The notes beneath the pieces were generated by a model. The model had not been told where the DNA came from. It made no database searches and was given only the letters and a program-made list of their open reading frames with translations. The position numbers and the translations under genes are program-made. A stretch of 60,769 bases of DNA, counting the filler, from Hausera hauseri (lineage: Eukaryota), in assembly GCA_046269625.1 (NCBI GenBank). It is 10 parts of 10 records of this genome, joined end to end, with 100 filler letters (N's around TTAATTAATTAA, not from the genome) between each part and the next. Parts side by side here need not be neighbours in the genome. Positions count along the whole stretch, not along the records: positions 42,511 to 47,613 come from JBJURY010334937.1; positions 47,714 to 51,758 come from JBJURY010796646.1; 8 more parts are not named here. One strand, given 5' to 3'. Of the stretch, positions 17,938 through 57,919 are shown piece after piece. Positions within the stretch are counted from its first letter, which is position 1; each line of letters opens with the position of its first letter.

Positions 17938-17939
17938 AA

Positions 17940-26230: not shown

Positions 26231-26239
26231 TAATTGGCC

Positions 26240-28792: not shown

Positions 28793-28800
28793 AAGCGAAC

Positions 28801-33450: not shown

Positions 33451-33599
33451 ATTAAAAGGAATTGATTGATCTGGCTATTTATGAGGTTGGAATGTGATAA
33501 ACCTTTGGATTTTGATTCTTTAGCAGACGCGGAACTAATCGTTTTATCCAAAAAATTCTTTTACTAATAATATCGTAAAGAAAGTGCCATTGGTCTCGA

Positions 33600-35945: not shown

Positions 35946-36185
35946 TAAATCGGGAACCTAGCTGTCTTGAAATAATTCACAAAATGACGGATGTTCTCGA
36001 GGATTCGGCACGTAGGGTAACGCATAAAATCGTACGAATTCTGTACTTTTGCTTAATTTTGCACCTCTGATTTCCAGAAATTCGCGGAACCCTTGCACTG
36101 ACAACAATTTCGCTTCATTATTCTCAAAATTATGTTTAATTGGAAAAATGGCAAAATAGATTTGGCGATAAAATCCCACTTCTCA
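35945..36185 (-). pseudogene. ARMC9: ARMC9 (LisH domain-containing) N-terminal fragment
   Basis: IYFAIFP..FLEIRGAKLSKSTEFVRFYALPYVPNPREHPSFCELFQDS. Confidence 0.8.
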
Positions 36186-36799
36186 CACCATTGTTGTTTC
36201 ATAACGAATGTTTTATTAAGAACAATAAGAATTTATTTCAAATTAAAAAAAAACTAATTGATTGCCAGTAAAATCGTTATGTCATATTCACACGTATATA
36301 CAAAAGTATTTATATACAGTCTGAGAATTTCGTGATAATATTTGATAAATATTTTCTTTTTGTCAGAACATCAATTCATTTTGGCAATTAAAGCCTGATG
36401 CATATCTTTGTTTTGGCAGAACATTATATTGAATCTCGACCAAAGAGATATTTAAATTCGGATTGTTGTGGTCCTGATGAAATATTCCGACACGACGAGA
36501 TAGAACACCAAAACGCATCAATTCGTCGGCAAGTGTAAAACAAGTAATAGTAAAAAGGAAATTTGTATTTACTGTTAACATAAATTAAAATAAACACGGA
36601 AGCACGATCTCGTTGGGCACAACACATGGTTAAAATATTTTCTCTGCTTTGTGCTATTACAGTAGGGTTCCAATGTCGAAAATGCTTAAGTGCATATTGT
36701 GGTAGTTAGAGTGTGGTTGCACTAGGGGGATTAGCGTGTCTATGGGAGGACTTTCCCCACAATGTGACTATACTTTGTTGATGTGATTTGCATGTGAAG

Positions 36800-37113
36800 A
36801 TAGTCAATTTTACCGTAGACCAAATAAGGTCTCTTATGGAAAGAAATTGAATATAAGGAACATGAGTGTCATAGCTTATGTAGATCACGGAAAATCGGCA
36901 TTGACGGACTCCTTGGTGAGTAAAGCGGAAATCATGTCTGGTGCGAAAGCTGGAGATTTCAGATTTACATATACCAGAAAGGACGAGCAGGAAATGTGTA
37001 TTACTATAGAGTCAATGGCAATACCTCTTTACAATGAAATGGATGACAATTTCCTAAAAGACGTCAGAGCTATGCAGAAAGTCGTTTTGGCAGATGATGA
37101 TTCCAATTACAAT
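36800..37113 (+). pseudogene. EEF2: Elongation factor 2 5' fragment (pseudogene)
   Basis: [44 protein letters not shown]; lost ATG, frameshift, mutated G1 motif. Confidence 0.88.
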
Positions 37114-37213: not shown

Positions 37214-39922
37214 TTTGCTGCGTAACCTTGGATAAATCTTCTGTAGTAGTTGCAGATCCCTAAGAAGCTTCTCAAATTCTTGACACATTTGGGTCTCTCA
37301 AAGGACTTAATTGCTTCTAGTTTTAATGGATCTGTCTGTATCCCTTTGTCGTTCACTATGTGTCCTAAAAATTTTACTTCTTTCTTGAGGACGTGGCATT
37401 TCTCTAGGTTTATTCTGAGACCTGCTTGCTGATCCTCTGCAATACATTTTCTAGTATCCTATAATGCTCTTCTAGAGTCTTAGAGAAGATTAGTATATCA
37501 TCTAGATATACCACTGTTTGTTCAATGTCCCCAAGTACTTTATTCATTAGTTTTTGGAAGGTGCCCGGGATTGCTGCTATACCAAATGGCATCCTGTTCA
37601 TACAGAACTGCCCTAATTTTGTTGAAAAGGCCGTCTTCAATTTGGAATCTTCTTCTAACTCGACTTGATAGTATGCATTCCCTAGGTCGATTGACGTGAA
37701 AAACTTGGTCCCGTATAGCCTGTTTAATATCTCTACCGCGTTAGGCATGGGGAAGACCTGTCGTTCTGTTATAAGATTCAGCTGTCTAAAGTCCAGACAT
37801 ATTCTGACATCATTCTTGTCTTTCTTCCGTGCACATATAATTGGTGTATTCCATGCTGAGTTACATGGCTTGATAATATCGTTTTTCCATAGATTTCGGA
37901 TGGTTTCGTCAATCTTTTTTTCTAGGTTTACTGGTTGCCTGTGAGGTTTGATATTGACCGGCGCTCCTGTCGTGTCTATTCGGTGTTTGATGAGGGATGT
38001 GCACCCTATGTCCCAGTTGTCGGCCATAAATACCTCTGGGTATTTTTGTATAATGTTGAGTAGATCTTTGTCGTCACTCACCTGAAGGGCTTCCTTCGGC
38101 CTGTTGACTCGTTCTTGGTTACTCACTTTACGGCCGAACTTAGCTTCCAGGTTGCATATATCTTGCTGTAATGTTCCCGTTTCCATGCGTTTCCATCCCA
38201 GTTCTATTCCGAATGCCTTTTGCAGGTCAACGACACCTATTATTTCTGGGCGTAATTCCGACACTACCAGAAATGTAACAAGTCTCCTTAGACCCTTGAT
38301 TTCTACGTATGTTGTAAGTGTGCTAAGGCAATCTAAGGGGCTATTGTTCGCGCATTGTAGTGTGGTATCTGATTTCTCTATGTGTGTGTTTGCAAGTTTA
38401 TCCACGATCTTTTCGCTTATGACGTTTACCATGGCTCCCGTGTCAATAAGCAATCTTCCCATCTGTCTTGTATCTTTAATTTGATTCCTGGTCGTCCATT
38501 AAACTTCCCGTATGATATCTGTTCGACATACAAATCGTCTAGCGTGAAGATCTGCGTATTGTTCCCACTTTCCTCTATTCCGTTGAAGGATACTTCCTGA
38601 AAATTTTCCGTTTTCATAAATTTCCGTACTTTTTCCTGTGTCCTTTTATCCATCGCTATACCTCCGTGTCCCCTTCTTCCTGATCCGTCTATATTGTTTG
38701 ATATACTACTACTATTATAAATAACGATATTTTGGGAGACTAAATCTATTGTAGTGCCCCGATTTGCTCCATTTCCATCGAGGCTCTGTATTTGGGGCAA
38801 CTGGCTCCTGATTGGATTCTGTTTCTTCCTCCTCTACGTTTGCAACTTCCTCCGTGTTCTGTACATATTATGCCCGGACCTTCTTTCTTCTTTGTATGTA
38901 TTTCATCCTGGATCTCTTCTCCCCTCCAGCCTGGTGTATCACTCCTTTTCGGTATGTCCCCTATGGTGACATCTTGCACAGCTAAGGTTAACACAATTTT
39001 GCCTGATGTGCCCTAGCTGACTACATCCATAGCAGCTTATTGGTTTTCTTTCGGGACACTGCCTGCATATGTGTCCTTCTTTTGCGCATCCAAAGCATTT
39101 AATCGATCTCTGTGTGGTGCACGTTCTGCTTGTATGTTCTTCATTCTGGCACGTCCAACACTTTAATCTACTATTTGGTGGTCTAGTAGGGGTCATGTTG
39201 ATTCTAGGAACGGGTTTCCTGATATTTTGTGTTGCCACTTCCTGGTAGCCTTTTCTACCGATCCCCGGATACTCCTTGACAGTGTTGACTTCTTCTGTAT
39301 TAATCTTCACCTCGTGTATCTTCCCTATTTTCTCCTTCATTGTTTCCGCGTCTCGTTTATCACTGAGGCATATTTCGCTTCTCATCTCTCTATTGTTACA
39401 ACATTGGAACAATAGTTCCTCTTTTAGAGCCTCGCGTGAAAGATTGTGTTTCATGATTTTATCGAGAAGTTTCTCGATTATCTCAATTTAAGCTTCCGGT
39501 TCCTCTCCATTCATTCTGTACTCGAGCGCTTCTTTTAGATCTTCGCATAGCGTTGAGGATCGGGCGAAAGATTTGCGTAGTCGGTTTTGGTATCCCATTA
39601 TCCTTGCATCTACTACTTCGTATCTTTCTAGTGCATCTTCCTGCAACGGGCATTCGACCATGATTTCCTCTTTCGCCGCCGGAGTGTTCATATATTTAAA
39701 GAATTTTTCACAGTCTTTAATGAACTTCTCTACGTCGTCGCCTTTCCTGAATTTGTTGGGAAACAACTGGTTCGAGAAAATGTTTATTGTGGCGTAAGTC
39801 GACATGTTGGCAGCGTGCACATCCACGCAATCCACCTCGTCGCCCAGCTTGGGTAGGGTTGGAAAATACCCGCCCTCTGGTATGTCTGTTGAGTCATAAT
39901 TGGATCGTTTGAAATTACTCAT
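37214..39922 (-). mobile_element. Decayed Ty3/Gypsy element (gag with multiple CCHC knuckles, PR, RT)
   Basis: CWTC..HTSRTC, CFGC..HICRQC, CYGC..HIRQNC; LIDTGA; IDLGNAYYQV; VYLDDILI; LRSFLGICNYYRRF. Possible tRNA-Ser-like PBS at ~39831-39846. Confidence 0.9.
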
Positions 39923-40060
39923 TGAAAAGTAAACATCAATTGTAGAAAAATTTTATTGTAATCAAAGATACTTATTTGGAAACAAAAATTCTAAATTCAA
40001 ATTATACTTTTAATTGTAGGGGGATTGGAGGACACCAGGCCAATATAAATATCCTATCTT

Positions 40061-40140
40061 GAGACCCCCCAGGATTGGAAATCGATAATCAATGTTTTAT
40101 ATGGGAAAAATTTGGAAATCAATATTTTTTATTTGATCGA
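40061..40140 (+). repeat. Diverged copy of the CCCCAGGATTGGAAATC repeat motif beside pPolB
   Basis: Matches the ~19940-19980 and ~32555-32600 segments. Confidence 0.5.
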
Positions 40141-40353
40141 TTGGCGTGGTCATGGCTTCAGTATTCCCACCCCCAAAAAATCAATTGGCCTCGTCGTGGT
40201 TTCACTATTCCTACTCCCAATTGGTTTAAATTTTGCAAAGTTGATATAAATACGTCTGTGAAAGTCACTTGTGAATAAAAATGTGTACTGACGAAACATA
40301 AGACAAAGAAGTCTGTACAAATACTTATTAATATAACAAATACAATCAAATAT

Positions 40354-42410
40354 TTACACTTTTGTACAATAATGTCCATATGCGACACTTTTTTTCGATA
40401 TCCAGTGTCGTTTGTCGTCGAATGGATCTAGCGCTTTCTTTTTTATACTGATCGTCATCAGTTGATGGTTTTTGGTGCCAATCCGTTCTTGATCGACAAT
40501 TGTCCCACATCCATTCTCATACGCTTGCAAGTAGTTATCAAAGTGCAAATCGGTTTGTTTCAGATTGATACCCTTGCATTTGAGCACTGGTTTGGTTTGG
40601 GTTTTGAGGGCATACGATTTTGGTCTTAGGAAAATGGCTTCTTCGTATTTTGCACTACCCTTACTTTCATCCTTAAATTTTTTAATTACCGAAGCGAAAC
40701 GGGTAGAATAAAGAGGGTCTGTAGTGTCATAGTTAGAAGTGTCCAACTGCTCATTTACTATCATTGCCGGTAAGAGCTGAGATCGCAGACCTACACTACG
40801 ACACTCAAGAAAGAAACTATCAGTATCACCAGCAACAATATTAAGTTCACAATTGAACTGATGTCTGTATGATTCTAACCCTATGTATTTCAATTCATAC
40901 ATTCTCAACTTGGAAAGATCAAGTACAGCCTGGCCGATGTATGATGGTCTGTCTAATATCACAATGTCTTTGTCAAGGAGAACAGCAACAAAATCATAGT
41001 CAATTATAATACTCTCTTTAAACTGGGCATTACTAGCATATGTCACAAAATTTTTAGCATTGTTACATAGTCTCAAGTTGGACCATTTTAAGAGGTTTTC
41101 GACTGTCTTACCATATAATCTATTGTTCTTGAGCTTAAAGAAGTCTTTTTCAAAAGGATTTTTCGCTGCAGCCCTCTTAGCAGTGTTTAGATCAATGTAA
41201 TCCTTAAAGACATAGCCTTTTGTCAAACTCAACAGCCCGATGAACCTTTTCAACTATAAGGCCTAAATCTATGTACAATTGTAAGAGGCAATAATGAACC
41301 ACATAGTTTGACTTCCGCTCATGAGTAAGAAGCAATTTCTTAACTTTTGAACCTGGTGGACATTGGTTCATTTTGGTTAGAGGCAGTTTGTCAAACTTAT
41401 CATGTTTGTCTGCTGGAATGCTTAAGTCAACTTCAAAGACCAAACCTCGTTTTTCTTTAACACAGTCAATGTAAGGTAATTGTTGGATCAGACTAGCCAA
41501 GACGTCCTCATCATAAATCCAAGTCAGATTCGCAAATGGCAAAAGTTGAGATAAAGCCCAGCCATATAAGTTATTTACATCTATATACAAAGGACTGGTG
41601 CTTTCATCTGTTACAGTCCTATGCTTATTTACAAAAGTAATGCCACTGCGAATACTTGACTAAAAGAAGTGATGCATCTCAGGATCCTGGATAAGCTCGA
41701 TCTTGCAAGGACTGGTTTCCAATGCTATGGCCCAACGTAAACCTGTAATTGAGACAAAGTTAGCAGCCTCTAAACCATCTTGCAACTTAACCTCCTTTCT
41801 GAATCTTTCAAAGACATCATACAACAATTAGACGTCAAGCTTTATATATATCAACATATAATCTAACAGACAGTTGCAACTGTATTTGGACCAAACCAAT
41901 TATGATTCTTCGTAATCACTGTCGCTAACATCATTCCATTTTGCTGGTAAGTCGTTAATTGACTGCAATTCACTAAAAGATTTGGCTGCAGTATATGGGA
42001 AAATCCCTTTTTCCTTAATTATGTCAGAAGGGAAGGCTGACTAAGTCAATGGGTAGTTATCTAAGTTTGAAGCTAAAGTCTTAAGTGAAGCTGGCAAAAA
42101 TTGCAATGAGTCGAGAAATCGAATAAACACAGACTTTTTACCAGAACATTGTATATTTGCCCTCATGGTTAGAAATTTCTTTGTCGTTTGTGGAATCACA
42201 CTCAAGTCCCAATTTTTGAATTTACTTACTGCATGTTTTAAGATATGATGGAGATCATAGCCACACAAATTATGGAAAATTACAGGTAAATTATATCTAA
42301 TATTACGAGCCAAGTTACACTTGTTGCATGCAGGGCCTAAGAATTTATCTGAAACATGACAGTGATCTCTAACAAATTGAAAACTGGTTTCATGACAAAG
42401 GTAACATTCT
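40354..42410 (-). pseudogene. Protein-primed family B DNA polymerase, diverged subfamily, 5'-truncated
   Basis: VIFHNL.GYD, FLDSLQF, YIDVNNLYGWAL, KLKNNRLYGKT, AGDTDSFF, LRPKSY, FDDKR. Confidence 0.92.
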
Positions 42411-42852
42411 NNNNNNNNNNNNNNNNNNNNNNNNNNNNNNNNNNNNNNNNNNNNTTAATTAATTAANNNNNNNNNNNNNNNNNNNNNNNNNNNNNNNNNN
42501 NNNNNNNNNNTACATTTTCAAATTAAAGTTTTAATTTAAATTTAAAAATGTTTCTAATTTAAATTTAGAATTTCTGTTCTCAATTATATCCTCACAATGC
42601 TCTTGCGGCAATTTCTATGTTTCTCTCTATCTCTTCTTGATTCGGGTTTACACCCTTCATTACCATTATTTTGTATAAAAGATAAGATATAGCTGTTACA
42701 ATTTTACGTCGAGATATACCGGTTCCCATCATTCTCGACAAAATATCTTTTTCTTGGATTTCATTTATCCTCTCGTTCGTGGGGATTTCTGCAAATTGTT
42801 CACTAATCTTTGCAATTTCATTCCTTATAGCTTGCATTAGTGAATCCGGTAT

Positions 42853-43407
42853 TTAGAGATTAGTATTAAACTCAACGAATGCATTATGCATTCTTGCTAG
42901 CAAGGAATGTAGTAATTTTGCCAATGATACATTATCTGCACCATATTCATCTTCTGTTGTTAGAAATCTTCGAAAGACTTCGTCATCTCTAGCTTTTCTA
43001 CCTTTCAACTGATAAAGTTTCGTCGTTCCTTTTGGTCTGCCACGGTTTTTTTTATCTGTTTGCATTTGTTCTGATATAGGCATATTCACTCCCGTTTCTA
43101 TTTTTTGAGCTTCATGCTGATGTTCAGTTTTCTGTATCTCTTTTCGCCTAACATCAGTGACAATTTCGTCAATTATTTCTTGTTCAGACTGTTTATAAGT
43201 AATACACACAGGATTGTATCGATTTTCCCAGATACCTACTTCATACAAGGTTTCGTATTCCAGCAGAGTGCGTCCATAGAAACGCAACTCTATTTTTCCT
43301 CGAGGCTGGATAATCCCATTGATATTATTTTTCAATGTCATTATCTTATCCAACGACTTCATTCTTAGAACATGAAAATCTTGGTTGTACTGTTGCAGCG
43401 TAACCAT
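42853..43407 (-). CDS. Accessory ORF fragment with ubiquitin-like domain (43195-43410) and AT-hook (43030-43044)
   Basis: DKIMTLKNNI..IELRFYGRTLLEYETLYEVGI; NRGRPKG. Confidence 0.7.
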   Translation of the reverse strand: MVTLQQYNQDFHVLRMKSLDKIMTLKNNINGIIQPRGKIELRFYGRTLLEYETLYEVGIWENRYNPVCITYKQSEQEIIDEIVTDVRRKEIQKTEHQHEAQKIETGVNMPISEQMQTDKKNRGRPKGTTKLYQLKGRKARDDEVFRRFLTTEDEYGADNVSLAKLLHSLLARMHNAFVEFNTNL

Positions 43408-44033
43408 TACTTCAGGGTCTTCTCCTAGTGTCCTTACTCTACCCGCATATCGATAAATTATATACCGTACGATGTTCTAGTATGTGCTTGTACGCGCAGA
43501 ATATATTAGCAGTAAATCCAGTAAATTAGCAAATTGTTGATGGCTAAATGTTGGCAATAGTAGCATAGACAGATCTTGTCTAAACCGAGTGCCATCGATT
43601 AGTTCTTGGTTAACATAGCTAGATATTTTCCAAACTATTTCTACGCCATCCTGATTTAAATTTACAGATGAAGACTCATAACTTGGGGATTTTTCTTTTA
43701 TTTTCTTTTTTCTGATCCTTTTTATCTTTTCTTTGGGTTCACTTTCTCCACTTGACTCACTTTTTTCACTTCCACTTCCAGAAGGTAAGTTAAGTTCCAG
43801 AGTCTTTAGTTCTTCTTTTTGTATCAAAGGTTTATCCTTCTTCTTAACCCTTTTTTCTCAGTATCCGATTCTCATACGGGAGTTTTTTTGGGTCTACCAA
43901 TAGGAGAAATAACTGAACTTTTATCATTTATTTTTTGTCTTTTCTCACAGGTTTGTTGCTCCTTTAATTCCAGGTATAGCTGTTTTAATTTGGTTAACTT
44001 ATCTTTCTCCTCTGTCGTATTGGTTTTACTTTC

Positions 44034-45050
44034 TTATAATTTAAATCTGATCTTCTGTTGTAACTTTTCAGTTGTTTCCTCGGGCTCTGTATCCGTAGTT
44101 TCGTGCTCATTATTCGTATCAGATATATTGCCTACGATGTCGACATTCTTTTTCTTTTGACTTGACTGTCCTTGATTAGGGCAAGTACGAGCCATATGTC
44201 CGTATTTTTGACATGCAAAACATAATGGCTGTCCGTTCTGGTTAACCGTTGGTTTTCTCATCGCAGATTTTTGAGGTTGGTCTTGTTGCCACGTAACCTT
44301 TTTTGTTGTTGCCCCGTTTGATTCTGAATTTTATAAAACGGTTTTTGAAAATTTTTCTTTGACTGAAGGCTTTTCATCTTTTTATCATCAATTTTTTGAG
44401 GCTTTTTGGTACTTTTTAATCTTTTACAGTACTGCTCAATTTTTCTAGCCTTACTGACAGCTTTCTTATATGTGTCAGGGTCAGCAACAATAATATAATT
44501 TTGTATTTCCTTAGTAACTCCATAACAAAATTGAGCCAGAAGAGCGTCTTCTCTTATATCATCATCTGCGTAGGCTCTCTGACCCAATTTCTGAATGGCA
44601 CATGCATATTCCTGCACACTTTCACCTTTTCTCTGACGTCACCTGTAAAACTCTCAAATTCGACATTTTCCTGATGGGTCTACTAAAAGTCTTTCTTTCA
44701 GGGAGTCCTTAAGGCCAGCTCAATCAGCTTTGTCATCATTCGTAAGCTGAGCGTAAGCAGTAAGTGCTATTCCTTTAAGATGCAAGGGAAAACGTTGTAT
44801 CCTAAGCTCATCTGACCAAGCAAAAACTCACTATAATCTTGGTCCGGTTTTCCTTTAAACTTATTCATCGGAAGGACCATTGTACTAGTCGTACTTGAGC
44901 CAGTTTCTATTCCAGAGCTAGACACTGGGTTTCTTTCTATATTTGTGTTTGGTTCAGCCAAGGGGTTTTCGTCTGATTCAGAACTACTCCTTGCTGAATC
45001 AGTACGTGAAGTTGTGGTGCTAGCGTTAATTCTACTTCGAGTGTTATACG
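44034..45050 (-). pseudogene. gag with CCHC zinc knuckle
   Basis: KFKGKPDQDY, major-homology-like region, CX2CX4HX4C. Confidence 0.85.
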
Positions 45051-45060
45051 CGAGTGTGAT

Positions 45061-45078
45061 TCCTTACTCGGGGCACCA
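45061..45078 (-). promoter_or_regulatory. Primer-binding site TGGTGCCCCGAGTAAGGA (elongator tRNA-Met-like)
   Basis: Lies 1 nt after the LTR end ...TATCA; resembles the complement of the tRNA-Met(e) 3' end ..CGGGGCACCA. Confidence 0.8.
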
Positions 45079-45079
45079 G

Positions 45080-45734
45080 TGATAAGTTTAGAGGTTAAGA
45101 TTTATTTCTGTTATTACGACCTTAAACTTATACACTTTACTTAATACTAGATAAAATATGGGGTTTTTCCTTTTCCCTAGACTAAGAATTAATTATTCTT
45201 ATAAGCAACCTGTGGGGTTGCCTTAGACTTTTATTAGACCTTAATGTGAGTACCGTTCAGGAGGGACACTGACGGTTTACCCCTTACTTAGAAGAATTTA
45301 CACATCCGGCAATTTACAGGGCCGGAATACCAAAACGGGGAATATTTTAAGGTTAATTATACCTTAGTATCAAATATTACTTAAAGTTATTTCAAACAAA
45401 GTTACTCTAAAAATATATATTAATCTAATAAAATAAAAGAACAAATAATACAGAAATTAAAAGCAAGAATCAAAAATCTTACACGTGTTGTAGTATAACA
45501 TAACGTAGAACCAAAATGAATAATCAGATTACGTCAAATTGTTAATGTTAAAATGACTGAACATGCGAGTATATATACTAAATTGATGTTGACACATTTG
45601 AAGGCGAAAATTTACATTCAATTAAAATGAATAAAAAAAATAAAAGTCAATTCAATTCATGACAAAAAAAACAAAAACCAATTTAAATTTTCACGAATGT
45701 TTATTTTGTAGATCGATTGAACAATCACTGTACA
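45080..45734 (-). repeat. LTR (655 bp, TG...CA), bounded by a PPT and a PBS
   Basis: Starts TGTACAG right after the PPT and ends TATCA right before the PBS. Confidence 0.85.
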
Positions 45735-45748
45735 TCTTCTCCCTCCTT
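45735..45748 (-). promoter_or_regulatory. Polypurine tract AAGGAGGGAGAAGA
   Basis: Pure purine run abutting the LTR TG. Confidence 0.85.
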
Positions 45749-45915
45749 AGATGAAGCTGTCCTCAGCTTCAAGGGATAGGTTTTGAGGATACCATTGGAA
45801 TATTTGTAATTGGCGGAGTCTATCCGCAACCATTGATTTCCCTTTCGAATCTTCTTTTTGAGGGTAACTGTTTTTCGAGTAATTCTCTTCTTTTATAAGC
45901 GTTTTGTTAAATCGA

Positions 45916-46656
45916 CTAGAATAGATTATTAAAATCAGTGGCAGAGAGCGGTTGATTGATAGTTGATTGGTTAAAGATAGGTGTTCCAGAGGTAACAGGT
46001 GTTTTAGAGGTCTCACCAATGTCCATCGATTCGCATTTGGAATTATTTGTCAAAGCCATCATCAAAAATTGTTCATTATGGAGTAAGATTTCGTTTACGG
46101 TTGATGTTGATTGGTCTGATTGAGATTGATTGGGTAGTTTTTGGAGATTTCCTTTTTCGATTTTATATTCGTTGATAGAGTTATAAATCTTCAGTATTGT
46201 TGCAGCTTTCTCCATGGTACGTAGAGTGTACACAATATTGTTAAATTTCATTAGGACTTGCTTATGGATCAATGTTTTCTCTGAATTTATTTCTGGATGA
46301 TATAATAGATCCTTAATTCCTAGTATTGCATTGGTATCAAAAAGGTCGAGGTGTAGGTTTGTGTTATAAATATCAATTCGAACTATCATCTTCCCATTAA
46401 GCTCTTTTCTAATAAGGGATCTAATTTGATAGGCATCTGTCCGTCCGGTTAAATCTATTTCTTTCAATCCGGTAATCAAGCTGTTATAATTGTCAATTCG
46501 GTCACGCGGAGTAACAAGTTTGTCCAAAATAATATTGCCTTCAAGATCCGTAATGGTTAATTCTACAAGGGTTGCCTCCTTATTGCGTAATGAGGTTAGG
46601 AGGAAGGCAAAATTCGTTGCTAGTATAACTATCTGATTTTTTGATCTTAGCGGCAA
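45916..46656 (-). CDS. 3' accessory ORF fragment with a REX4/ISG20-like DEDDh exonuclease fold (probably catalytically altered)
   Basis: LVELTITDLEGNIILDKLVTPRDRIDNYNSLITGL...LNGKMIV; the ExoI DxE motif is not evident (ILATNF). Confidence 0.65.
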   Translation of the reverse strand: MPLRSKNQIVILATNFAFLLTSLRNKEATLVELTITDLEGNIILDKLVTPRDRIDNYNSLITGLKEIDLTGRTDAYQIRSLIRKELNGKMIVRIDIYNTNLHLDLFDTNAILGIKDLLYHPEINSEKTLIHKQVLMKFNNIVYTLRTMEKAATILKIYNSINEYKIEKGNLQKLPNQSQSDQSTSTVNEILLHNEQFLMMALTNNSKCESMDIGETSKTPVTSGTPIFNQSTINQPLSATDFNNLF

Positions 46657-47793
46657 TCTGAAAAAGGATGTTCCGGCTGTGAGCTGATCACCATTGGATA
46701 AATTTGGGGGATTATCGTCTTTTCACACTTGATCTGAGGGAAGGTTTCTCTTCGCGTGACTTCAATGTATATTATCCGAGATGGGCCTCCACAAGTTCGT
46801 AGAATGATTGTCACATTTCGATAAAACTTCTTATCCAAGCGAATCGTAGTATAATCTATGACATCCAAAGTGTCGGTAAAATCATTTAGATGTGCTCGAC
46901 TTTTTACTTGAAGATTGCCTTTTGCTGCAGATATAAAGACTGACATAGTTCGACTGGAAATGCCGATTAAACCTGACAATTTTGTAGAAGCGTTAGGTAG
47001 CTTCATAATCAGTCCGGCTCTTTGATGGAGGAGATGACCTTTTAATTGTTTGGTATGTGATTTGCTTTACCGTAATAGACATAATCTTTATTGTCTGTTT
47101 GATTCAGATTGCTGTAATAAAAAGATTTAGTTCTGTCCACAACTTCAAATCCTTCTTGAACTAAAAAGAAATAAACACATGTTAACCAAGAAGATTTGAG
47201 AAAAGGAATACGAATNNNNNNNNNNACTCTTATTCAGTTTATAATTTTTGTAAGTCGCGAGAAATTTAGTATATTGGTTCTGTATCTTTGTACAGTAATA
47301 CACAGTTACATCTCTTGCTCGACAATCTTGTCGTTTACTTGTTCGATTTTTACTACTGAGAGGAGTTAATGGACAATCTTGCTATTCAGGATTAGTCGGC
47401 TTCTTAGCCGATGGTTTCTTTCTTGACGGACAATTTTGCCGTTTAGAGGTTTGTAGAATTTCATTATTAGGCGCATTTATATTCCCTGTTAACTCACCTT
47501 GTGAGTCTTTTCTTAAAAGTCTTAATTGATTTAACATTTCTCTTATTCTACGTTGCCGCCGTTTTATTTTTGACCAATAGATCGTTAAAGGCAACACTAT
47601 GGCTAGTAATATTNNNNNNNNNNNNNNNNNNNNNNNNNNNNNNNNNNNNNNNNNNNNTTAATTAATTAANNNNNNNNNNNNNNNNNNNNNNNNNNNNNNN
47701 NNNNNNNNNNNNNACGTGGCGAAGCTAGGTAATGAAGCCGCTACCACCGTTATTATATGTACAGAAACCATCTGAAGATGAGATAGAACAAAA

Positions 47794-49662
47794 TGGCTAA
47801 TCTTACAGATTAGTCCCAGATGGCCGAAATACTCGGATACTAGCCGTAAACTATAGAGAAAAGAATGTGGGATTGTATTTCCCGATCGAGGTGTCCATCA
47901 GGAATACTAATGGAGATGATATTATGAATAAAATAATCGCACCTTGGGCTAGGATAAAAGATACCTTCGCCGACGTTACTGGAATCACCAAGCCGCAGCT
48001 TGAAAAGGGAAAAGATTTTTTGGAGGTCTAAGAAGATATAAGCCATTGCTTATATGGATATATTGTTACAGGATTTTGAGTACACGAAGCGTTGGAGCGA
48101 CTAGGAATTAGGCAGGAATATATAGCCGGAATTCGAGAAGTGAACCGTAACCCAGCAGTCGTGTGTCAAGTTGATACTTCGATGCGGAAAAGAGGTTTCC
48201 TACTTCCGTCAGCATCTCGCGAATCACAATTCAGACTGATGCTAGAAGCCATGTATGGCGAACGATTCAAATTCCCTAAGCTGACGACAGCAAATCAAAG
48301 GACCAAATTTATAAAAGATATCTATGACTCGTTACGATGAGACCACGAGTGAAAAACCAAAATTCATATGCAAAACGCAATATCCGACAATAACCCCAAA
48401 ATCCTGATACAAAAATTCCAAAAACGGTTTAGCGAATATCCTAGTTATCGACAAATCAAACCACGAGGACATAACCGATTTCGAGTAACAATCCATAACA
48501 GCCCAATAGAAGTCCGGAACAACCAACAGAAACCATCAACCAGTAAAGCCCAAGGAGTGACAATAAAAGACGATAATTTAGAGAAACCGAAGAGGCAAAA
48601 GCAAAGACCTCCTTTTTGGATTAAATCAATAAAAAGAGAAGCAAGACCAGCAAAGGCCCTGTGACAGATAATCTAATCCCGGAAGAACCCATGAACGATC
48701 AGAAAGAAATACCAAATCGCGAGAAAAGGAAAGAAAATGGAGAAAAACAGTTGGAAATTACTAAATCTAAATCACTTAAGACGGAGGTCAACGTTCTTCG
48801 GAAAAACTGGCAAGAGGATACCCCGATCATAGTTACAGAATTCGGCCAGGTGAAAGAATATAAAATAATCTTTGTTATGGCCGAGTACTATAGCAAAGGA
48901 AAAATTATAGAGGCCATATTTTACGTGTCCACTGTTTTTAGAAGGATAGTCAGTGGAAATGGATATGACAAAGTAGATACTACGATCGGCAGATATCTAG
49001 CCCCGATATTTCAGTCGAAAAGTAGTACTAATAGATTGACAATTCCAGTGGATACCCAAGTTAGAGTTAAATTAAAAAGGCAATACAAAAAGACTGGAAT
49101 ACCCGATCTGGACAGGCAAAAGGTAGTAGAATAAACCCTAGTCTCGGTTTCAGATGATCCAAAGAAAAGCTCAATAGACCCCAAACAAAAACGATTATAC
49201 GGATACTTATACCAAGATAAAAAGTGACTGGTATTCGAGAGAATAGAAGTAGATGAAAACCTTGTAGACATAGAGGCAGCGGAGAAAGATGAATGTCCCG
49301 TATGCGACGCGGATCTCTACCAAGGATATGTAATATTGGACAACAAAGATTGCAGTTATAAATATTGCCGATACTGTTTGGAAACGTGGACCCTGAAAAA
49401 TGGAAAAACTACCTGCCCAGTATGCAGAGCCGAAGCTACAAGGCCAAGATACTACTCGAATGGAGAGAACAAGAAAATAGTAGAGATATTGCCCAAACAG
49501 GCCACTACGTCCTATCATATTGACTTGCAATCACCGTCAAACAAAACGGATTCGGAAGAGGACTTACGTGGACGAATGGACAGATTACGCAGAGTACGCG
49601 GCACCTCTACTGACGCAATGGGCACATCCGAGAGTGCCGTTCAGGGAGGAGAAATGTTATGA
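47794..49662 (+). pseudogene. Retroelement 3' accessory ORF (decayed) ending in a RING finger (49294-49425)
   Basis: 48661-49662 is one frame with two stops; CPVC-x16-CSY-KYCRYC-..W..-CPVCR; 5' extent approximate. Confidence 0.72.
49643..49654 (+). promoter_or_regulatory. Polypurine tract AGGGAGGAGAAA
   Basis: Purine run immediately before TGTTA. Confidence 0.8.
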
Positions 49663-50410
49663 AATGGCCGTTACAGAGAATAATTGAAAATGGAAACCGA
49701 AACCAAAACTGAAACCAAACCAATATTACATAGAAAAATCAATTTGAAAATTAGAATAATGTAAATAGTGTAGAACGGAAGCTGAACAACAATGGTTTAA
49801 TCATAATCAGTTTAATTGTATGGCCAAATTACGAAATATCCGGCGATAAATAATTGTAAATAAACTAGGATTATTGAAAATGATTTAATTGAAATGAGAA
49901 ACGGTTGTAAATAAACGGATCTCTACGACCATATAAGTCGATGTACAGAGACAGTAGTTGTCATTGTTAATCAGTCAGTATTCTACCAAATTCAGTCAGC
50001 ATTATTCAGAGGGTCCAAGATACCGAAAGACTTGACGATTTGTTTTCGAATCATTTACTTATTAATCGAAGCTTACTTGTGTTGCTGAACTGACATTCTC
50101 GTTATTGGTACGGTATAGTTATTGCTGTTAAATAAATTTTGTTGTATCTTAAAATCTACTATAGTTTTCCGTCACTCCTTACGAAGGACTTGCACCGCAC
50201 TAAGTTTTAAAATCGTTTTAAAAAGTTATAGTTAAGTTGAGGATTTTTTAATTTACGCAATCACTGCACGCAGTACACGCATCATAAAATAGTGCAAACA
50301 TTCTAACGTGAACGCTAGAACTTATCTGCTTAAATAATATTATCTCAAACTCGAATTTTACTCACTGTTATAGTTGGGTGTTGGATAGGGCCCACCTTCA
50401 ACTGCTAACA
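49655..50410 (+). repeat. 3' LTR (756 bp, TGTTA...TAACA)
   Basis: Inverted TGTTA/TAACA termini, upstream PPT, and a terminal motif shared with the other LTRs here. Confidence 0.82.
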
Positions 50411-50479
50411 TTATTAAATAATGTTTGGATCTTAAATTTCTTTGAATCCTATTATTATTGCAACAACCGTGGGGAAACT

Positions 50480-51090
50480 TTTCTGGGATACGGTGCACTT
50501 TCTAGTGCACTTGTGGTACTCCTTTACTCTTCACTACCACCAACTTGTACTTCCTTATCTTACATTTGTTTTTTCTTTGCAAGCTGCTGCATATTATCCG
50601 CCTGTGTCTCCTTGAACTGTCTCTATTTCTTTTTGTGCTTTTCCTAGAGGCTGCTGGACAAGTTTTCATTGTTTTAACACAGGCGAAATATTACTTTCGC
50701 CTGCTGTTCCACTTTGGCTCTCAGTCCTTCAGCAAAATATCTTTGTTCCTCATGTGCCTTTGAGATTGGGCCAGCTGTTCTTTCAATTTGCTCATTTCAA
50801 CGAAATCCTCAGTTGGCCGCGGCTTTGCCTGTATTTTGAATTTCTTGTCGAGGTTCACGTGGAACTGCGAATCTTTTGTATTGTCTAACATCATTATCTC
50901 AATTGATGTTTCGGCTTTCATCTTTGGATTGACATACTTTTTCGTAGGTCATATTCCTTTTGACATTTTCTTTTGTTTTTGTCCGTAATGGAAATACGCT
51001 CTTGCGTACTGCTGCAATTTCAACAGCCTTTATTAATTCTTCCAATCGACACTTCGCTATCCGACGCTGAATGGTTTCCTGCAAACAAGT
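50480..51090 (-). pseudogene. Unidentified decayed K/E-rich coding remnant
   Basis: Overlapping ORFs 50721-51084 with coding-like composition; no recognisable motif. Confidence 0.3.
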
Positions 51091-51681
51091 AGAAGTGAGC
51101 TATCCATCTCACTTCCCAAAAAGTGCCGAGATCGGCTTGGGACCAAGTTTTCTCCACCTATCTCGCAATTCTGAACATTTTATGTTTTGCAGTCGGAGAC
51201 CACCACCAGCCGGAAGCACATGTCATATGTCGCACATGTCGCCGGCGGAAATCGGTAGAGCTCAATAAGGCGAGAAAAATTTTACAGCGCGGCGAAAGTC
51301 CAAAATTTTACTGTACGGCGCTAGAAGCAAAATAAACAAAACAGGAAATATTTTATGAGAAACAATGCACGAGTTACGAATTGCGCAGTGTTCGGTGCAA
51401 ATGTCAAATCAGTGTCGAGAAATCGAATGACTACAATGTCAACGTTGTCTGACCATGGGAACAAGGAAAAAATAAATGGGGATAATTCAAACTCTAAAAA
51501 TTTCCCGTTGTCAAGTCTGCTGGTTGTGGAAATGGGTTGAGCACGTAGAACATCAGTAGTTGAGTATTTCCTATTATAGCAGCCTCACGATCAAACCAAT
51601 GGATACCGGTGAAGCATGTATCGAAATGGAACGAAAAGCATTGATAAAAGTCAAAATCATCTTCATCATCCTCGTTCTTTA

Positions 51682-51758
51682 GTTCGTTCGTTCGTTCGTT
51701 CGTTCGTTCGTTCGTTCGTTCGTTTGTTTGTTCGTTCGTTCGTTCGTTCGTTCGTTCG
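51682..51758. repeat. (GTTC)n tetranucleotide microsatellite
   Basis: Direct tandem repeat at the contig end. Confidence 0.97.
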
Positions 51759-51924
51759 NNNNNNNNNNNNNNNNNNNNNNNNNNNNNNNNNNNNNNNNNN
51801 NNTTAATTAATTAANNNNNNNNNNNNNNNNNNNNNNNNNNNNNNNNNNNNNNNNNNNNATTGATATTATTGATTTGCATTTTATAGCGGAAGAGCTTATG
51901 CGAAGTCTGCCTCAGTAGGCAATT

Positions 51925-52170
51925 ATTTCAAATCCAATCAACATATTTAAAATCTATATTTAAAATTTCATTCACATAGTGCATCATGTGCGCTTTCGAT
52001 TGCACCGGGTGCCATTCCCTAATCATCAATATTGCGTTTATCGAAAATCCGATATTATTGACTTTTGCAAACTTGCACATATGATGCACACCTGCACAGT
52101 ACACAGATACATGTGAACTGATGTGCACTATAGATTAGCATTTTGTTCTGATCGATTCGATCAATACCGC
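51925..52170 (-). repeat. Internal segment of the AGTAG repeat family
   Basis: Reverse complement resembles 20415-20635. Confidence 0.7.
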
Positions 52171-52479
52171 ATGTGAGGTTCTTCATAATCTACTAATTCC
52201 TTTTTGACAAATGAAATCTCTAAATCACAATGAGAATTTTTTAAATATGGTCTAACGGCTAAAACCCAAAAGCTTTATTTATTCACATATTTAAACAAAA
52301 ATCTTAATTTCCTAACCAAATTACCCATAGGATGAATGTGGGCACCACATCACTCCCGCTGGCAAAGTTTGGTTGCCTGTGGGAACCCATCCGGAGTCAT
52401 CTGGGATCCTAAATTCTGCACAGTCAACGAAAGCATCTCTCCAATGTTCAGCCCTGTTATGTTTGGAATTTACGATCAT

Positions 52480-53220
52480 CTAAAATCGTGCTTGCATTCC
52501 AACGTCTCCAATATCTAACATAGATACGTCAATATCAACAGTCCACTTATGTATTTGGCGTAAAACCAGTGAGTCCGATGTAACTGGTCTATTACATGAT
52601 TGAGTGGTATCACCTATGTGATTCAGTATATTCTCAGAAATAATCATTGGCGTATCTGGATCCTCGACAAATTGCTTAGCTGGCTCCCTTGAAATACAAA
52701 TCGGTTCCTGAGCACGATCTGAAGATTCGATATTTTCCAGGATTACAGGATTACTCGCAGGTACTGTATCTAAATTCTCCTGATTGCTTGAATGTTGTTT
52801 TTGTTCGCTTTGATCAATCGACGAAATTGCAGAAGATTCAGTTATTGTTGTAAATAGAGTCTGAATGCATTTTTCGTTTGTTATATTTAAGAGGAAATTC
52901 TGAGCTCTGTTATATGGATCGTCTGTATCGACAATACTTTCCAGTCCATTTAGTGTTTTCAGAAACTTTATTGGAACAAGGAAGAGGAAAGACAGAGCTC
53001 TGTCCATTGGACTCGTTGATAGTCTTTTTGACCACCTGTAATATATCAACATCCAAGGCAATGCGCTACCGTTTTTGAGAAAAAATAGCGCGCATTCAAA
53101 ATACTGTGGGTTTCCAGAAACAACGGTTTCTGGTAACCCACTTCTGACACCAATGTGGTATGTAGTATATTTCATTAATTTATTTAATGTGGAGGCTGCA
53201 GTAAGGAATTCCGGTAGCAA
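52480..53220 (-). CDS. Unknown ORF downstream of pPolB (probably continues, frameshifted, to ~52280)
   Basis: 246-aa open frame; C-terminal CGAHIHP motif duplicated at ~53400. Confidence 0.45.
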   Translation of the reverse strand: MLPEFLTAASTLNKLMKYTTYHIGVRSGLPETVVSGNPQYFECALFFLKNGSALPWMLIYYRWSKRLSTSPMDRALSFLFLVPIKFLKTLNGLESIVDTDDPYNRAQNFLLNITNEKCIQTLFTTITESSAISSIDQSEQKQHSSNQENLDTVPASNPVILENIESSDRAQEPICISREPAKQFVEDPDTPMIISENILNHIGDTTQSCNRPVTSDSLVLRQIHKWTVDIDVSMLDIGDVGMQARF

Positions 53221-53570
53221 TAATAATAATGATTAGACATTAACCAAATATCAAACAAAAATCACGAATTGATTGATATTGCATATATCCTTTGAAAAGC
53301 GAAAACTATTTATTTACCAAATTAAAATTGACAATCAACTTGGCATTGGAGTATCTAAACAACTGTCTTAATATATACAGATCGCCTATTGGGTGAATGT
53401 GGGCACCACAGTCGGACCCTACTATCGATCCCACGCGGTCATAGCAGACGCTCGGCCGTGCCCGAACAAAATGGACCAAAGGGCACCTGCCGCCATGGGC
53501 ACCACTACTGCGCTCTGTGATATTCTTCTTCTGTGATACCGGGCCATTGCGGTGATAATCCCTCTGTCGT

Positions 53571-55250
53571 CTAAAGCCGGTCGTGCGATATTGCAAAGTC
53601 ATACGAGAATATACCTTTGCTACGAGCAATATGTGTGGGGAACTGAGTCAATGTTAGCGGCAGATTTGGCAAGGCATTTACCATCTTTGCCAGAGATTCA
53701 TTGACAAATTGCAATGAATCAAGGAAGCGTGCCTGGAACCGGTTAATACGAGCAGACAGTGTCAGGTATTTCTCCATCGTAGTCGGAATTATGGATAGTT
53801 CCTTGTGTGGAAATCCGTTTATGGCCGATTTTAAAATATGGTGACAATCAACCCCGGAAGTTATGAAAAATCACCGGCAGGAATGGCAGCACAAACCTTG
53901 CCAAATTGCATGGATTGCATGCTGCTCCGAGATATCGTCCGATAAAATGGACGTAATTCGATACGAGCCGTTCTAATGCATAAAACGGTAATATTTCGTG
54001 GCTCAGGCAACATTCATCTGTGACTGCAAACGTCAGGCATTCACTTTATCTATCCACATCAAAAGTTTATTGCTATTTCTACTGTACAAGGATGCGATTT
54101 TTTTCTTTACTATAATTTCCAACTGCTGCAGAAAATTACGTACACAGTTCCAACCATGGAAAACGTAATACTACGGTTATCCGGCGATTTTTGTTGGTAC
54201 TAGCAACATACCCACAGCAGTTGGAATGTGCTTTTGATAGTATACATTGTGTCGTGGTAGAACGGCTTCAATATCGGCATACATCACATATACCGGGCTG
54301 TCCGTTTTTGATCAGTCACTGAATTTCAAACTTCTTTTTGACTGGCATAACATACATTGTGGTTCCTGAAGAAGTTTGCCTGTACAGAGATACGTGCTTT
54401 TCCCATCCCTCATTTGACCGGAATCCATGCAGACACACGGGACACCATTTGCAGCTTATACGCTTTTTGATGAACTGGTCATGGTCCATGTTCAACGATC
54501 TGTCCAAATTGGTCACGGCCGTGTAGTGAAACTTTTTATCGTTCTCCAATAGCAACAAATTTACTAGGTGTCCAACTGGATTTCGACTGCGGTAAATTAT
54601 GTCCTAGGTAAATTATGTCCTACACCGGTACCTCTACAATTGTGTTGAACCGGAACACGTAGACTGCCAGTGTCGGATTACGCCGTTCAAAAGCCGGAAT
54701 GGTTTTGAGTTTTATCGGCATCTAACACTCGTCGTAGTCTAATTCTGAGAAATACTTACTGTACTGTTTTGGACAATTTGCATGATGTCTGGACACTTGA
54801 TCATATTTCACTATGACCAGAATGCTGTAAATAAAGCAATATTCTTCGTTAGTGTTTTGTACATTCACTACCACCAGAGACTGCATTAAGGATACAGGTG
54901 TCGGTATGAATGAACGTCTGGACAGGTAAATCATGTCACTCGTCTTGGTCAGAATAAAGCCGAGAGTGACAATCTTTACAATTCGCGAACCACTGTCCTT
55001 TTCGGTGTAGTTGGCGAATTTTTCGTCAAGATTTTGGCCTAGATAGGCAATAAAATCCTCAGAATATGGTACGGCTTAATGTGACAGGTACCATTGTTTC
55101 CTGTCACCCCGCAGATTTTCAAATTCTGCAAGTGCATAATATAGCACTTTGCAGTGGTGTTGTTGAAATTTTGCCATCTCTGATTTCAACCAGTTACGCA
55201 CATTAGCAGGTACATCCTTCAATTGTGTTGCTGTTTTCGCCGACAGGTCA
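53571..55250 (-). pseudogene. pPolB N-terminal half, close paralog of 28801-30500; polymerase domain deleted
   Basis: NMDHDQFIKK..CKWCPVCLHGFRS, FLDSLQF, KGIFSYDF. Confidence 0.9.
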
Positions 55251-56806
55251 CCTTTATGTCCACGTACGATCTGTTCAGGTCGTACGTGACAGTAATGGGA
55301 GGTTTACGTTCCTGCTGCTGATGCTGACTTCTGTTGTTTTGAAAGTGTTCCTTAAGGCTTGCTAATTCTTGACGTTTCTTGCTGCTGCTTCTTACTGCGT
55401 CCATTAATATTTCCTTTTTCGATCTCTGAAACTAATTTAAGTTGTCTTTGTGGTTGATGTAGAATTGTTTACAGTTGACTTGTGTCTCAACTATATAACA
55501 ACCGGTGCATACATAGGCCCGTTTACTACATCTTTTGTTGTTGTTGTTGTTGTTACATTTCAGTATAAATACTTGTGCTTTTTTACGGTATGACATTACT
55601 ACATGTCCCATCTAACAGAACTCATTCGTTTATATCACTCGTTTGAAGGTCTCCGGAGTCACCTTTACAATCTTGATCAACCTTTACATGATGCACGATA
55701 CTTTTCTCCCGAAGCGATACTCCGGCGTGCTGATGAGAATTGGAGGGTACGAGAACCTTATTAACGACATATGAAGCAGCTTGTTGGTGTCATTGATATG
55801 ATATTCGATCAGTTGTTTCGAACCTATCGGAAATTGGCGTTATTACTATGCGGTGGATGGCAATCCATGTCAAATACGGTTTGTGGAAGAGTTTGTCAAA
55901 GGTGATTACATTCCAATGTGGCAGTCAGCAAATCGGATTTGTTTCAAGCAACATTGCAATGTAACTAATTCCGATGGACTCGTTCTTTCTCCTGCTGAAT
56001 TGATTAATGCGTGTGGTTTGTGTGGTGTTGATGGTGGTGCTCCAATTTTATCAATATTGGAGAATCTGGTTTAGTTGTACTACATAAATAGAAAAAAGTT
56101 TGATATGGACTTGATTGAGCTTCCGTAAGTCAAACAACATGAACATTATGCAAATAAAGATGTAGTCATTTGACCAATTTAATTGACAACAAAACAAAAA
56201 TGATCATGGGTAAAGTTACATAAAAGCAGATAATAATCAGTAATTCTACAACACACACAGAGAGGAAGGGTCGATTGTTTTGATGCGACAGAATATTTAA
56301 ATACAATTATCGATCGTTAATGTCTATTTAGAGACTTTGAGGATTACTCTATGTGCACTATGTACGAAAGTGTATTGATTTTCTATTTGGTTTTACTTTA
56401 AAAAGACCATTGTTTCTGGCCATTGATCGATATACAAATAACTTTAATCTATCTGTGAAGTACATATATATTACATTGTGTGCCATACATCTTATCATTG
56501 TCCGACCATTCAATTCGTCGATTAACTTAAGTGTTTGTGTGTGTCCGTGTGCTAGCAATCTGTCACGTTATGTTTCATTTCTTCATTGTCAACACACACA
56601 CACACTTCATCGCTGAGCGAATAAATCTTGAGACAATAATGTGACAATCAGTCTCCTTGTGAATAATAGCAGTAGTAGTACTCAATTAGGAGCTCGTCGT
56701 CGTCGTNNNNNNNNNNNNNNNNNNNNNNNNNNNNNNNNNNNNNNNNNNNNTTAATTAATTAANNNNNNNNNNNNNNNNNNNNNNNNNNNNNNNNNNNNNN
56801 NNNNNN

Positions 56807-57081
56807 CAATATAATTTTTCATCGTCCCTTAAGGACGATTTGCACTACACTAAGGGTAAAATCTTACTTAAATTCTGTAGCTAGGTTGAGAGAATCTAAC
56901 TTAAGACACGCAGTTTTATTGCACGCAGTACCGGAATCAAAAATTAATTTCTTTTTTATAAACCTTAAGGCACAATCAGATTATTCGAGAACGAGTAATC
57001 CTAACCTACTCATAGAGCGAATCTAAATTGGAATTAATATTGTTATAGTGGGAGAATGTAAGGGCCACCCTAACTATAACA
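56807..57081 (+). repeat. 3' part of an LTR with no PBS following
   Basis: Ends TGTTATAGTGGGAGA..TAAGGGCCACCCTAACTATAACA, nearly the same as the 17940 LTR end. Confidence 0.75.
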
Positions 57082-57083
57082 AC

Positions 57084-57596
57084 TGTATATAAATGTCAAT
57101 AATGCTAATAAAACGAGAATCAAGTTCAATAATAAAGCTCATGGAAAACTATATATACCCAAGAAAAACTGGTCCAAGTCAGAACAGCATTTCAGAGTAA
57201 ACGAAGGAGAATAAACCGGAATTTTTCAACTTGCAAAGAGAGACTAACATTAATTGATTCCTGTTTTATTCGAGTGACGAATCTGTATACGTTGTGTTAT
57301 TAAAGGGTATATTTGATTTCGTTGTTTTTAAATTCCATATAGTTTTCCCATCGCATCTTAAAAGCGATTTGACGACTTTAGGAGTAAAATATTTACTTAA
57401 ACTACATAGTTAAGAGGAGAAATTGGTAACGTGACGCAAGCACCTACATTCAGTACACGCAAGAGTTCTAAAGAAATTAACTATAAGTAAAGCACAAACA
57501 GTCTATTCCATAATGATGGACCGTACCTGCATAAAAATCGATTTAAACATTGTTATATAGAGGTAGATTGCGTAAAGGCCACCCCAATATATAACA
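57084..57596 (+). repeat. 5' LTR of a paralogous giant Gypsy copy
   Basis: Ends ATAACA before the PBS; 5' border uncertain. Confidence 0.65.
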
Positions 57597-57598
57597 TT

Positions 57599-57615
57599 TG
57601 GCGACCCTAGCAGGA
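57599..57615 (+). promoter_or_regulatory. Primer-binding site TGGCGACCCTAGCAGGA
   Basis: Identical to 17921-17937. Confidence 0.88.
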
Positions 57616-57919
57616 CATTTTGTACCTCGTTAGACTTTACTGTTGAGAGATAAATAAATACATACCGGTGAACAACGCCATTGACACCGAGTAATTTGAT
57701 ATAGCTGTAACTGAAAATTAAATAGGGTATATAGGCTATCAAACAGGGGATAAATAAACGATCAAATTTGAGAACAAATATTGATAAATCAAAAGCAAAC
57801 GTTCAAATTGGGAAAATAGAATCGAGTTAGACGTCATCGAGCAAAACGAGCAATTTAAAATCCCATTTGAGAAAAACCAAATCAATAAAGCAAACTTAGG
57901 GATAATTTACGCAACTAAT

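Follow-up and report, generated by a model that had tools for sequence, protein, structure and literature searches.

What use would an LTR retrotransposon have for an exonuclease-like gene whose catalytic residues have all been replaced? To our knowledge, few animal LTR retrotransposons carry accessory genes beyond env. The locus that raises this question lies in 60,769 nucleotides of Hausera hauseri DNA (assembly GCA_046269625.1), here called the window, which consists of 10 separate pieces joined by N spacers. The gene, which we refer to as the cargo gene, is in the piece at 42511-47613. An initial annotation of this DNA had described an exonuclease-like pattern there, and we found it in 45919-46722 on the minus strand. 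In minus-strand order, the piece runs from the end of a membrane-anchor ORF through the cargo gene, a PPT, an LTR-like stretch and a PBS to a broken gag. The features of this piece, and one of the next, are as follows ("dead" meaning without catalytic residues).

47386-47613, minus strand: end of the upstream ORF, with a hydrophobic stretch and a basic tail, truncated at the piece edge
about 45919-47146, minus strand: the whole broken cargo gene, with its start near 47146
46734-47146, minus strand: predicted N-terminal jelly-roll (AlkB/cupin-like DSBH) domain, from the family profile, in register
46168-46668, minus strand: ISG20/REX4-like DEDDh domain, from phmmer against the PDB and the family profile
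46618-46620, 46612-46614, 46360-46362, 46222-46224 and 46207-46209, minus strand: replaced catalytic positions, from the alignment
45747-46167, minus strand: C-terminal tail down to 45919, variable and of low complexity, then more stop-free sequence, from the reading frame
45735-45748, minus strand: PPT of 14 purines, then TG, from the sequence
45080-45734, minus strand: the one LTR-like stretch, TG...CA, of about 655 bp, lying between PPT and PBS
45061-45078, minus strand: PBS, beginning TGG one base beyond the LTR end, from the sequence
44034-45060, minus strand: broken gag, with a Ty3 capsid-like piece and a CCHC zinc knuckle, from Pfam
42853-43407, minus strand: ORF in which one stretch weakly resembles ubiquitin (E 0.06-0.08 when compared with the Ubl of 13319-14245)
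47801-48337, plus strand: second dead DEDDh copy, in the next piece (66 bits versus 4.1 for the best shuffle)

The piece belongs to a Ty3/gypsy LTR element: PPT, TG...CA LTR, PBS and zinc-knuckle gag are all present in it. We take the PBS at 45061-45078 to match the elongator tRNA-Met. In Pfam, the gag matched Ty3_capsid at E 1e-4, which is below the cut-off, and zf-CCHC at E 3e-5. It had been proposed that a chain of ORFs ends at the PPT and that the LTR heads a gag-Ubl element; both proposals held in part. The final stop of the cargo-side stop-free chain does overlap the PPT; the chain itself is a single gene, interrupted by a stop and by frameshifts around 47040 and 46720, since the family profile (see below) matches two upstream stop-free stretches in register (E 0.011 and 0.41). 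Likewise, a broken zinc-knuckle gag does follow the LTR, and it is the Ubl that is weak there, with no ubiquitin match in Pfam or the PDB for 42853-43407. The LTR is not that of the clearer gag-Ubl-env element at 7970-20647, to which it has no blastn match and from which it differs in PBS.

At 5.1 kb, the piece holds one LTR, is without pol and ends short of env, and no second copy of the LTR at 45080-45734 occurs within the window. One LTR shared by a 3' end and a 5' start implies either tandem elements or a collapsed repeat assembly. Over 319 nt, the region beyond gag has 76% identity with the piece at 1-7869, in which a gB-like env remnant comes after the shared region. The piece at 42511-47613 is a multicopy repeat, with 13,411 and 1,217 matching contigs in two public runs that each cover 30 of 30 bins, most of the contigs being less than 95% alike; the better of the two runs may be where the window comes from. 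The gag side had 10-30 times the contig depth of the cargo side; contig depth is unfit for ranking the parts. In run X2, three contigs diverge from the sequence immediately upstream of the PPT, which hints at other 3' ends closed by this LTR as well. The pairing of the ORF with this LTR elsewhere, expected by the initial annotation, was not directly seen: among the 16 of 14,728 pieces listed, no contig bridges cargo and LTR.

The translation of 45919-46722(-) includes TLVELTITDLEGNIILDKLVTPRDRIDNYNSLITGL. When the 177 residues encoded at 46150-46680 were compared by phmmer with 177,635 PDB sequences, only ISG20 (E 0.0019) and ISG20L2 (E 0.0054) were recovered at E<=10. Pfam RNase_T (PF00929), the check put forward at the outset, gave no match for the window protein; among 23 relatives it matched 10 above the cut-off and 2 below, and 11 were without a match, including all 6 dead rows. 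A profile built from these relatives, with the window row excluded, recovered the window domain at E 6e-36 among 2,444 window peptides and matched ISG20L2 at E 1e-26. Judged from these comparisons, the window stretch is a decayed member of a DEDDh family on the ISG20/REX4 branch.

The relatives came from a full HMMER scan of 1.84 billion representatives, which returned 32 matches, 23 of them alignable as one family; all 23 are unnamed proteins from metagenome and run assemblies. The nine left out of the alignment were two spurious matches, a C2-domain protein (P0013) and a repeat (P0021), and seven cellular-type or other DEDDh proteins (P0014, P0017, P0022, P0026, P0027, P0033 and P0034). A tree comparison took in six of these seven as 8 rows, with P0017 split into four domains; P0027 and P0034 were too short for it. 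In this tree, the element-borne rows form one group separate from the cellular-type rows (99/92). Word-index searches with the window protein found no relatives at near or longer lengths, no relatives turned up in viral contigs or phages, and a search of metagenome contigs with the window protein alone also gave none. As an observation apart, P0017 (804 aa), which lies outside the element family, has four tandem REX4-like DEDDh domains of apparently mixed catalytic state.

For structure, we relied on the relative P0005, whose AlphaFold model (pLDDT 84, pTM 0.74) has two domains; the fold results are those of P0005, the single-sequence model of the window domain reaching only pLDDT 40. P0005 residues 176-344 superimposed on ISG20 with Z 19.5 and rmsd 2.4 over 161 residues, in line with the REX4/ISG20-type resemblance noticed earlier and with the PDB matches to ISG20 and ISG20L2. 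The next best structural matches were ISG20L2, Pan2, the PolC exonuclease and SDN1; RNase D gave Z 9.6, against 19.5 for ISG20, and SARS-CoV-2 ExoN ranked 47th with Z 9.3. On this model, the closest structural kin are the cellular ISG20, ISG20L2, Pan2 and SDN1, not viral ExoN. A homodimer prediction for P0005 scored 0.00, which is uninformative in either direction.

In the window, the N-terminal domain is in two pieces, 47045-47146 and 46734-47009, split by a stop and a frameshift. Its family profile scored 14.1 bits on the window, as the window's top match, versus 4.7 for the best of 300 shuffles. Read from the full P0005 model, residues 1-138 form a double-stranded beta-helix that matches ALKBH6 with Z 11.6 over 137 residues, Ofd2 with Z 10.7 over 130 and cupins with Z 10.7 over about 94. 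In the PDB, Foldseek likewise returned cupins, and its matches in viral models included replicases of plant viruses as well as proteins annotated as AlkB; the fold matches include metal-free cupins, that of CENP-C among them, and an ESM Atlas search with the N-domain gave no usable match. Only P36, N37 and one His (74) are conserved at >=80% in this domain, and neither the HxD...H iron ligands nor the 2OG-binding Arg forms a conserved column in the family, the register being taken from sequence. We therefore predict a non-catalytic domain: a jelly-roll with AlkB oxygenases and cupins as its nearest folds and no HxD...H set or other metal ligand conserved.

We then considered the catalytic state of the DEDDh domain. 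The first DxE had been reported as replaced. It is gone, and not it alone, since all five of the window's catalytic positions are replaced, by A, N, T, L and K. Chance decay would replace all five codons with a probability of about 7e-4 at 10% divergence and 1e-2 at 20%, so that decay of the window copy is an unlikely cause. Of the 23 relatives, 17 are catalytically intact-looking or truncated and 6 are without the catalytic residues. The ExoI D and E are each present in 16 of 17 intact-type rows versus 0 of 7 dead rows, and the general-base His in 14 of 14 versus 0 of 5; the remaining catalytic positions are kept in 16 of 17 (D or E allowed) and 14 of 14 intact relatives. All six dead relatives have lost the ExoI and ExoII acids and the His, and a Glu is retained at the last catalytic position in three dead rows. 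In five of the six, the ORF is unbroken over its full length of 417-609 aa, and identity to the window copy is 21-29%. The pseudo-nuclease suspected by the initial annotation thus finds company: judged by these residues, the catalytic loss is inherited and common to unbroken relatives, and is not just decay of the window copy.

Was catalysis lost once or several times? A tree of the DEDDh domain placed six of the seven dead rows together (89/93), and we considered a single dead clade; this was rejected once the catalytic columns were removed. With those columns dropped, a single origin of loss had a p-AU of 0.00096 (16 rows) or 0.0015 (21 rows), and the tree forces at least three state changes. 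These results indicate that catalysis, as read from its residues, was lost at least three separate times in the family. The window copy and dead P0006 pair on each domain separately (83/92; SH 91), a pairing to be read as a long-branch join with unstarred support; they have A-x-N and T in common at the catalytic sites. Branches of the dead rows are long (1.2-2.9), which fits relaxed selection.

What the dead domains have kept bears on what they could bind. A conserved Leu of a loop with RNA contacts in ISG20L2 (PMC10899777) is present in 15 of 15 intact rows and changed in 7 of 7 dead rows. Met14 and Arg53, reported as the 2'-OH readers behind the RNA preference of ISG20 (PMC9157404), are not conserved in the family: the first position has F, C or Y, and the second has E, G, N, D and others, with R in 1 of 24 rows. 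Because neither the loop Leu nor the Met14/Arg53 equivalents are kept, the dead pocket may not hold RNA. The dead domains have no clear extra basicity. All 7 dead rows retain P214, R215, D238 and G276, an agreement to be read with the enrichment of shared motifs that comes from recruiting relatives with a dead window query.

Where do the relatives reside? A metagenome scan with a closer alignment yielded four loci (L001-L004) from 90 candidate stretches, all four catalytically intact. In L001 and L004, the cargo ORF lies behind a single frame of more than 3000 aa that combines fusion glycoprotein, PR, RT, RH and IN; the fusion protein is gB/chuvirus-like, the aspartic protease domain occurs two or three times, and the tail is membrane-anchored. 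The gB/chuvirus-like env is upstream of pol (E 9e-84 and 5e-94), and PR-RT-RH-IN order is present in both. By eye, and unscored, we likened the ORF end at 47386-47613(-) to the membrane-anchored C-terminus of these polyproteins. A PPT+TG lies 98 nt beyond the cargo stop in L003, and a shorter purine run with TG, seen by eye, comes after the cargo ORF of L002; the PPT match in L001 falls inside an ORF, and none was found after the cargo ORF of L004. Two intact relatives therefore sit behind the env-pol of gB-type errantiviruses, and one or two others sit just before a PPT. The element context of outside relatives comes from intact-type loci. With the window gene lying just before PPT and LTR, the claim that this is LTR-element cargo stands. 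The GAG-ENV-POL errantivirus order is reported for nematodes, bryozoans and flatworms by Chary and Hayashi (PMC13524379).

The second dead copy, at 47801-48337(+), has two in-frame stops and no DNA similarity to the first. It lies upstream of a RING ORF (E 1.4e-7), after which comes a PPT+TG at 49643-49654. Its piece, 47714-51758(+), is another LTR element's 3' end, with two further ORFs at 48353-48664 and 48625-49134; the RING-finger ORF at 49228-49662(+) ends at the PPT and is a possible E3 ligase cargo beside a pseudo-nuclease.

Taken together, we read the window gene as the decayed remains of an LTR accessory gene, likely from a lineage in which the protein worked without cutting, probably by binding nucleic acid or silencing proteins so as to blunt small-RNA defence, a reading to which we give an even chance. 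The family keeps or repeatedly loses its catalytic residues, and therefore a non-cutting job is likely. The ancestral protein would have been a Mg-dependent 3'-5' exonuclease joined to a jelly-roll binding module; the binding role would be what selection keeps, and hence catalysis could be dropped again and again. The cargo ORF would be expressed separately from gag-env-pol; the window copy is broken and does not encode the full protein. The likeliest purpose would be interference with the host's small-RNA or RNA-decay defence. The target is the least secure part of this reading: by analogy with SDN1 and with dead DEDD proteins in the piRNA pathway, this machinery is possible at somewhat under even chances, and RNA or primer of the element itself is distinctly less probable. 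ISG20L2 is inactivated by single substitutions at its catalytic residues (PMC10899777), small RNAs bound to Argonaute are trimmed by SDN1 (PMC6123492), repeated catalytic loss in Dis3L2/Ssd1 marks a nuclease-independent RNA-binding role (PMC8097288), and dead DEDD proteins act in the piRNA pathway (PMC5408684). A more specific version, which we hold only tentatively and as unlikely in full, is that enveloped errantiviruses of invertebrates carry a dedicated anti-silencing gene, a dead AlkB-like reader plus an ISG20-like exonuclease, that would trim host piRNAs or siRNAs or, when disarmed, decoy small RNAs or their trimmers. The gene would then be an accessory gene in the style of retroviruses, used by an animal retrotransposon in an arms race with its host.

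A doubtful but serious alternative is that the protein serves replication of the element. When active, it would trim RNA ends or clear them away (on genomic RNA, primer tRNA, or residual RNA and single-stranded DNA); when dead, it would protect those ends against 3'-5' nucleases of the host. Carriage of the gene in cis by retroelements and loss of the RNA-versus-DNA specificity residues speak for this, as does the 3'-end processing of element RNA proposed for bdelloid DEDDy ORFs by Rodriguez et al. (PMC5408684). However, most gypsy elements do without such a protein (the piece at 7970-20647 ends short of its element's 3' end), and a core step is unlikely to tolerate at least three losses of catalysis.

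Could the dead forms simply be drifting out under weak constraint, the kept motifs reflecting fold inertia and search bias? All dead rows are on long branches, both window copies are broken, the RNA-contact loop is eroded and the synonymous signal is weak (in the 40 rows listed out of 846, synonymous variants make up 4 of 7 for the DEDDh domain and 0 of 3 for the N-domain). Drift would nevertheless have to leave five unbroken dead ORFs at 21-29% identity, and stop-free divergence to that extent needs protein selection; the ExoI acids were also lost together while other motifs stay. We consider it improbable.

Quite improbable as well is a dead form that acts as a protein-binding scaffold, or as a dominant-negative partner of host or element nucleases, without nucleic-acid contact. 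All 7 dead rows hold on to the family-specific P-R and D residues, absent in ISG20, yet have lost those of the pocket, and metal-free cupins (CENP-C) are among the fold matches; against these stand the lack of a known partner and the fact that both folds otherwise act on nucleic acid. Recent capture of a host REX4/ISG20L2 mRNA fragment without a role can be set aside as very improbable: the piece at 20748-27301 does combine RT with host-gene fragments, but capture is contradicted by the separate element-borne group and by an in-register N-domain that is missing from REX4/ISG20L2-like matches, and the ISG20 similarity is marginal (E 0.002).

How does the non-cutting accessory protein that we favor compare with known systems? 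Enzyme cargo is a known kind, because bdelloid DEDDy ORFs and an orchid AlkB ORF have already been described. The bdelloid Juno/Vesta ORF3 (Rodriguez et al. 2017, PMC5408684) resembles our cargo in being a stand-alone ORF, placed after pol and before the 3' LTR, for a DEDD 3'-5' exonuclease. It is DEDDy (RNase D/mut-7-like), with catalysis intact, no true env and sometimes a GDSL partner (PMC5408684); the cargo family, in contrast, joins an ISG20/REX4 DEDDh to a DSBH, sits in gB-env elements and lost catalysis repeatedly. Intact relatives have H-x4-D and so do not carry the DEDDy motif. The orchid Ty3/gypsy AlkB ORF (PMC9289625) is similarly an extra ORF of 2-oxoglutarate oxygenase fold; it is an active m6A demethylase in plants, whereas the cargo N-domain is without HxD...H and is fused to an exonuclease (PMC9289625).

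Cellular enzymes give the closest comparison: ISG20, ISG20L2, REX4, SDN1 and Pan2 share with the intact relatives the fold and the D-E-D/E-H-D set (PMC10899777, PMC9157404, PMC6123492). These ISG20-type enzymes are cellular and without a DSBH, whereas the window lineage is without the five catalytic residues and the family without Met14/Arg53. Maelstrom, EXD1 and Exuperantia (DEDD-derived), as well as Ssd1/Dis3L2, kept the fold and lost catalysis in repeated independent losses, as the cargo did (PMC5408684, PMC8097288). Those pseudonucleases are host proteins of other branches or folds with RNA binding shown, and none is known to be element-borne (PMC5408684, PMC8097288). Arenavirus NP and nidovirus ExoN are likewise viral captures of DEDDh, with immune evasion in arenaviruses (10.1101/2021.02.01.429129); these viral proteins are zinc-finger-bearing, active and structurally farther, and the cargo family is without conserved zinc ligands (10.1101/2021.02.01.429129).

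The errantiviruses with HSV/gB-type env (PMC13524379) have env before pol, an order also seen in L001, L004 and two other window pieces. The main text of that paper contains no 'exonuclease', 'DEDD', 'cupin' or 'ubiquitin', and the 3' accessory region is undescribed there. In the open literature, with PMC13524379 covered by its main text, we found no ISG20-type DEDDh cargo, DSBH-DEDDh fusion or repeated disarming in LTR elements. What appears new is the DSBH-DEDDh fusion as LTR cargo and its repeated disarming. The AlkB/cupin-like N-domain, the errantivirus context, the intact relatives and the bdelloid DEDDy precedent had all been missed initially. These results show that errantivirus 3' regions harbor unannotated retrovirus-like accessory genes, and they add the DSBH-plus-DEDDh architecture and repeated pseudo-enzyme evolution within mobile elements. 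Within the family, a compact protein occurs naturally in both an intact and a disarmed version, each in unbroken ORFs, so that the two lend themselves to direct comparison in vitro and in silencing reporters.

Several further observations concern related elements and the other pieces. In the single frames at 2-9037 of L001 and 1-9621 of L004, env lies within the frame and the post-integrase region has repeated beta-rich units and a membrane anchor. Extra small accessory ORFs, coiled-coil-looking, lie at 9207-9875 and 11418-11681 in L001 and at 11571-12008 in L004; Pfam gave no match for the two that were scanned. The pieces at 7970-20647(-) and 56807-60769(+) hold related decayed GAG-ENV-POL elements with LTR end and PBS in common, in which a Ubl comes just before the gB-type fusion protein, apparently as in L001. 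At 1-7869, exons of an SNF2-type helicase, recognized by eye, precede a decayed gB-env/PR/RT element that is related to the piece at 42511-47613. At 20748-27301, an RT/RNase H remnant lies beside fragments of alpha-amylase, Integrator subunit 3 and an ABC transporter. The pieces at 27402-32858, 37214-42410 and 51859-56706 hold related remnants of a protein-primed PolB and an endonuclease VII-like protein (polinton/adintovirus-like), and at 37214-42410 the PolB-type remnant adjoins a gypsy gag-PR-RT remnant. Finally, 32959-37113(-) contains a broken coding sequence of a CHD-type chromatin remodeller with no obvious introns, possibly a retrocopy.
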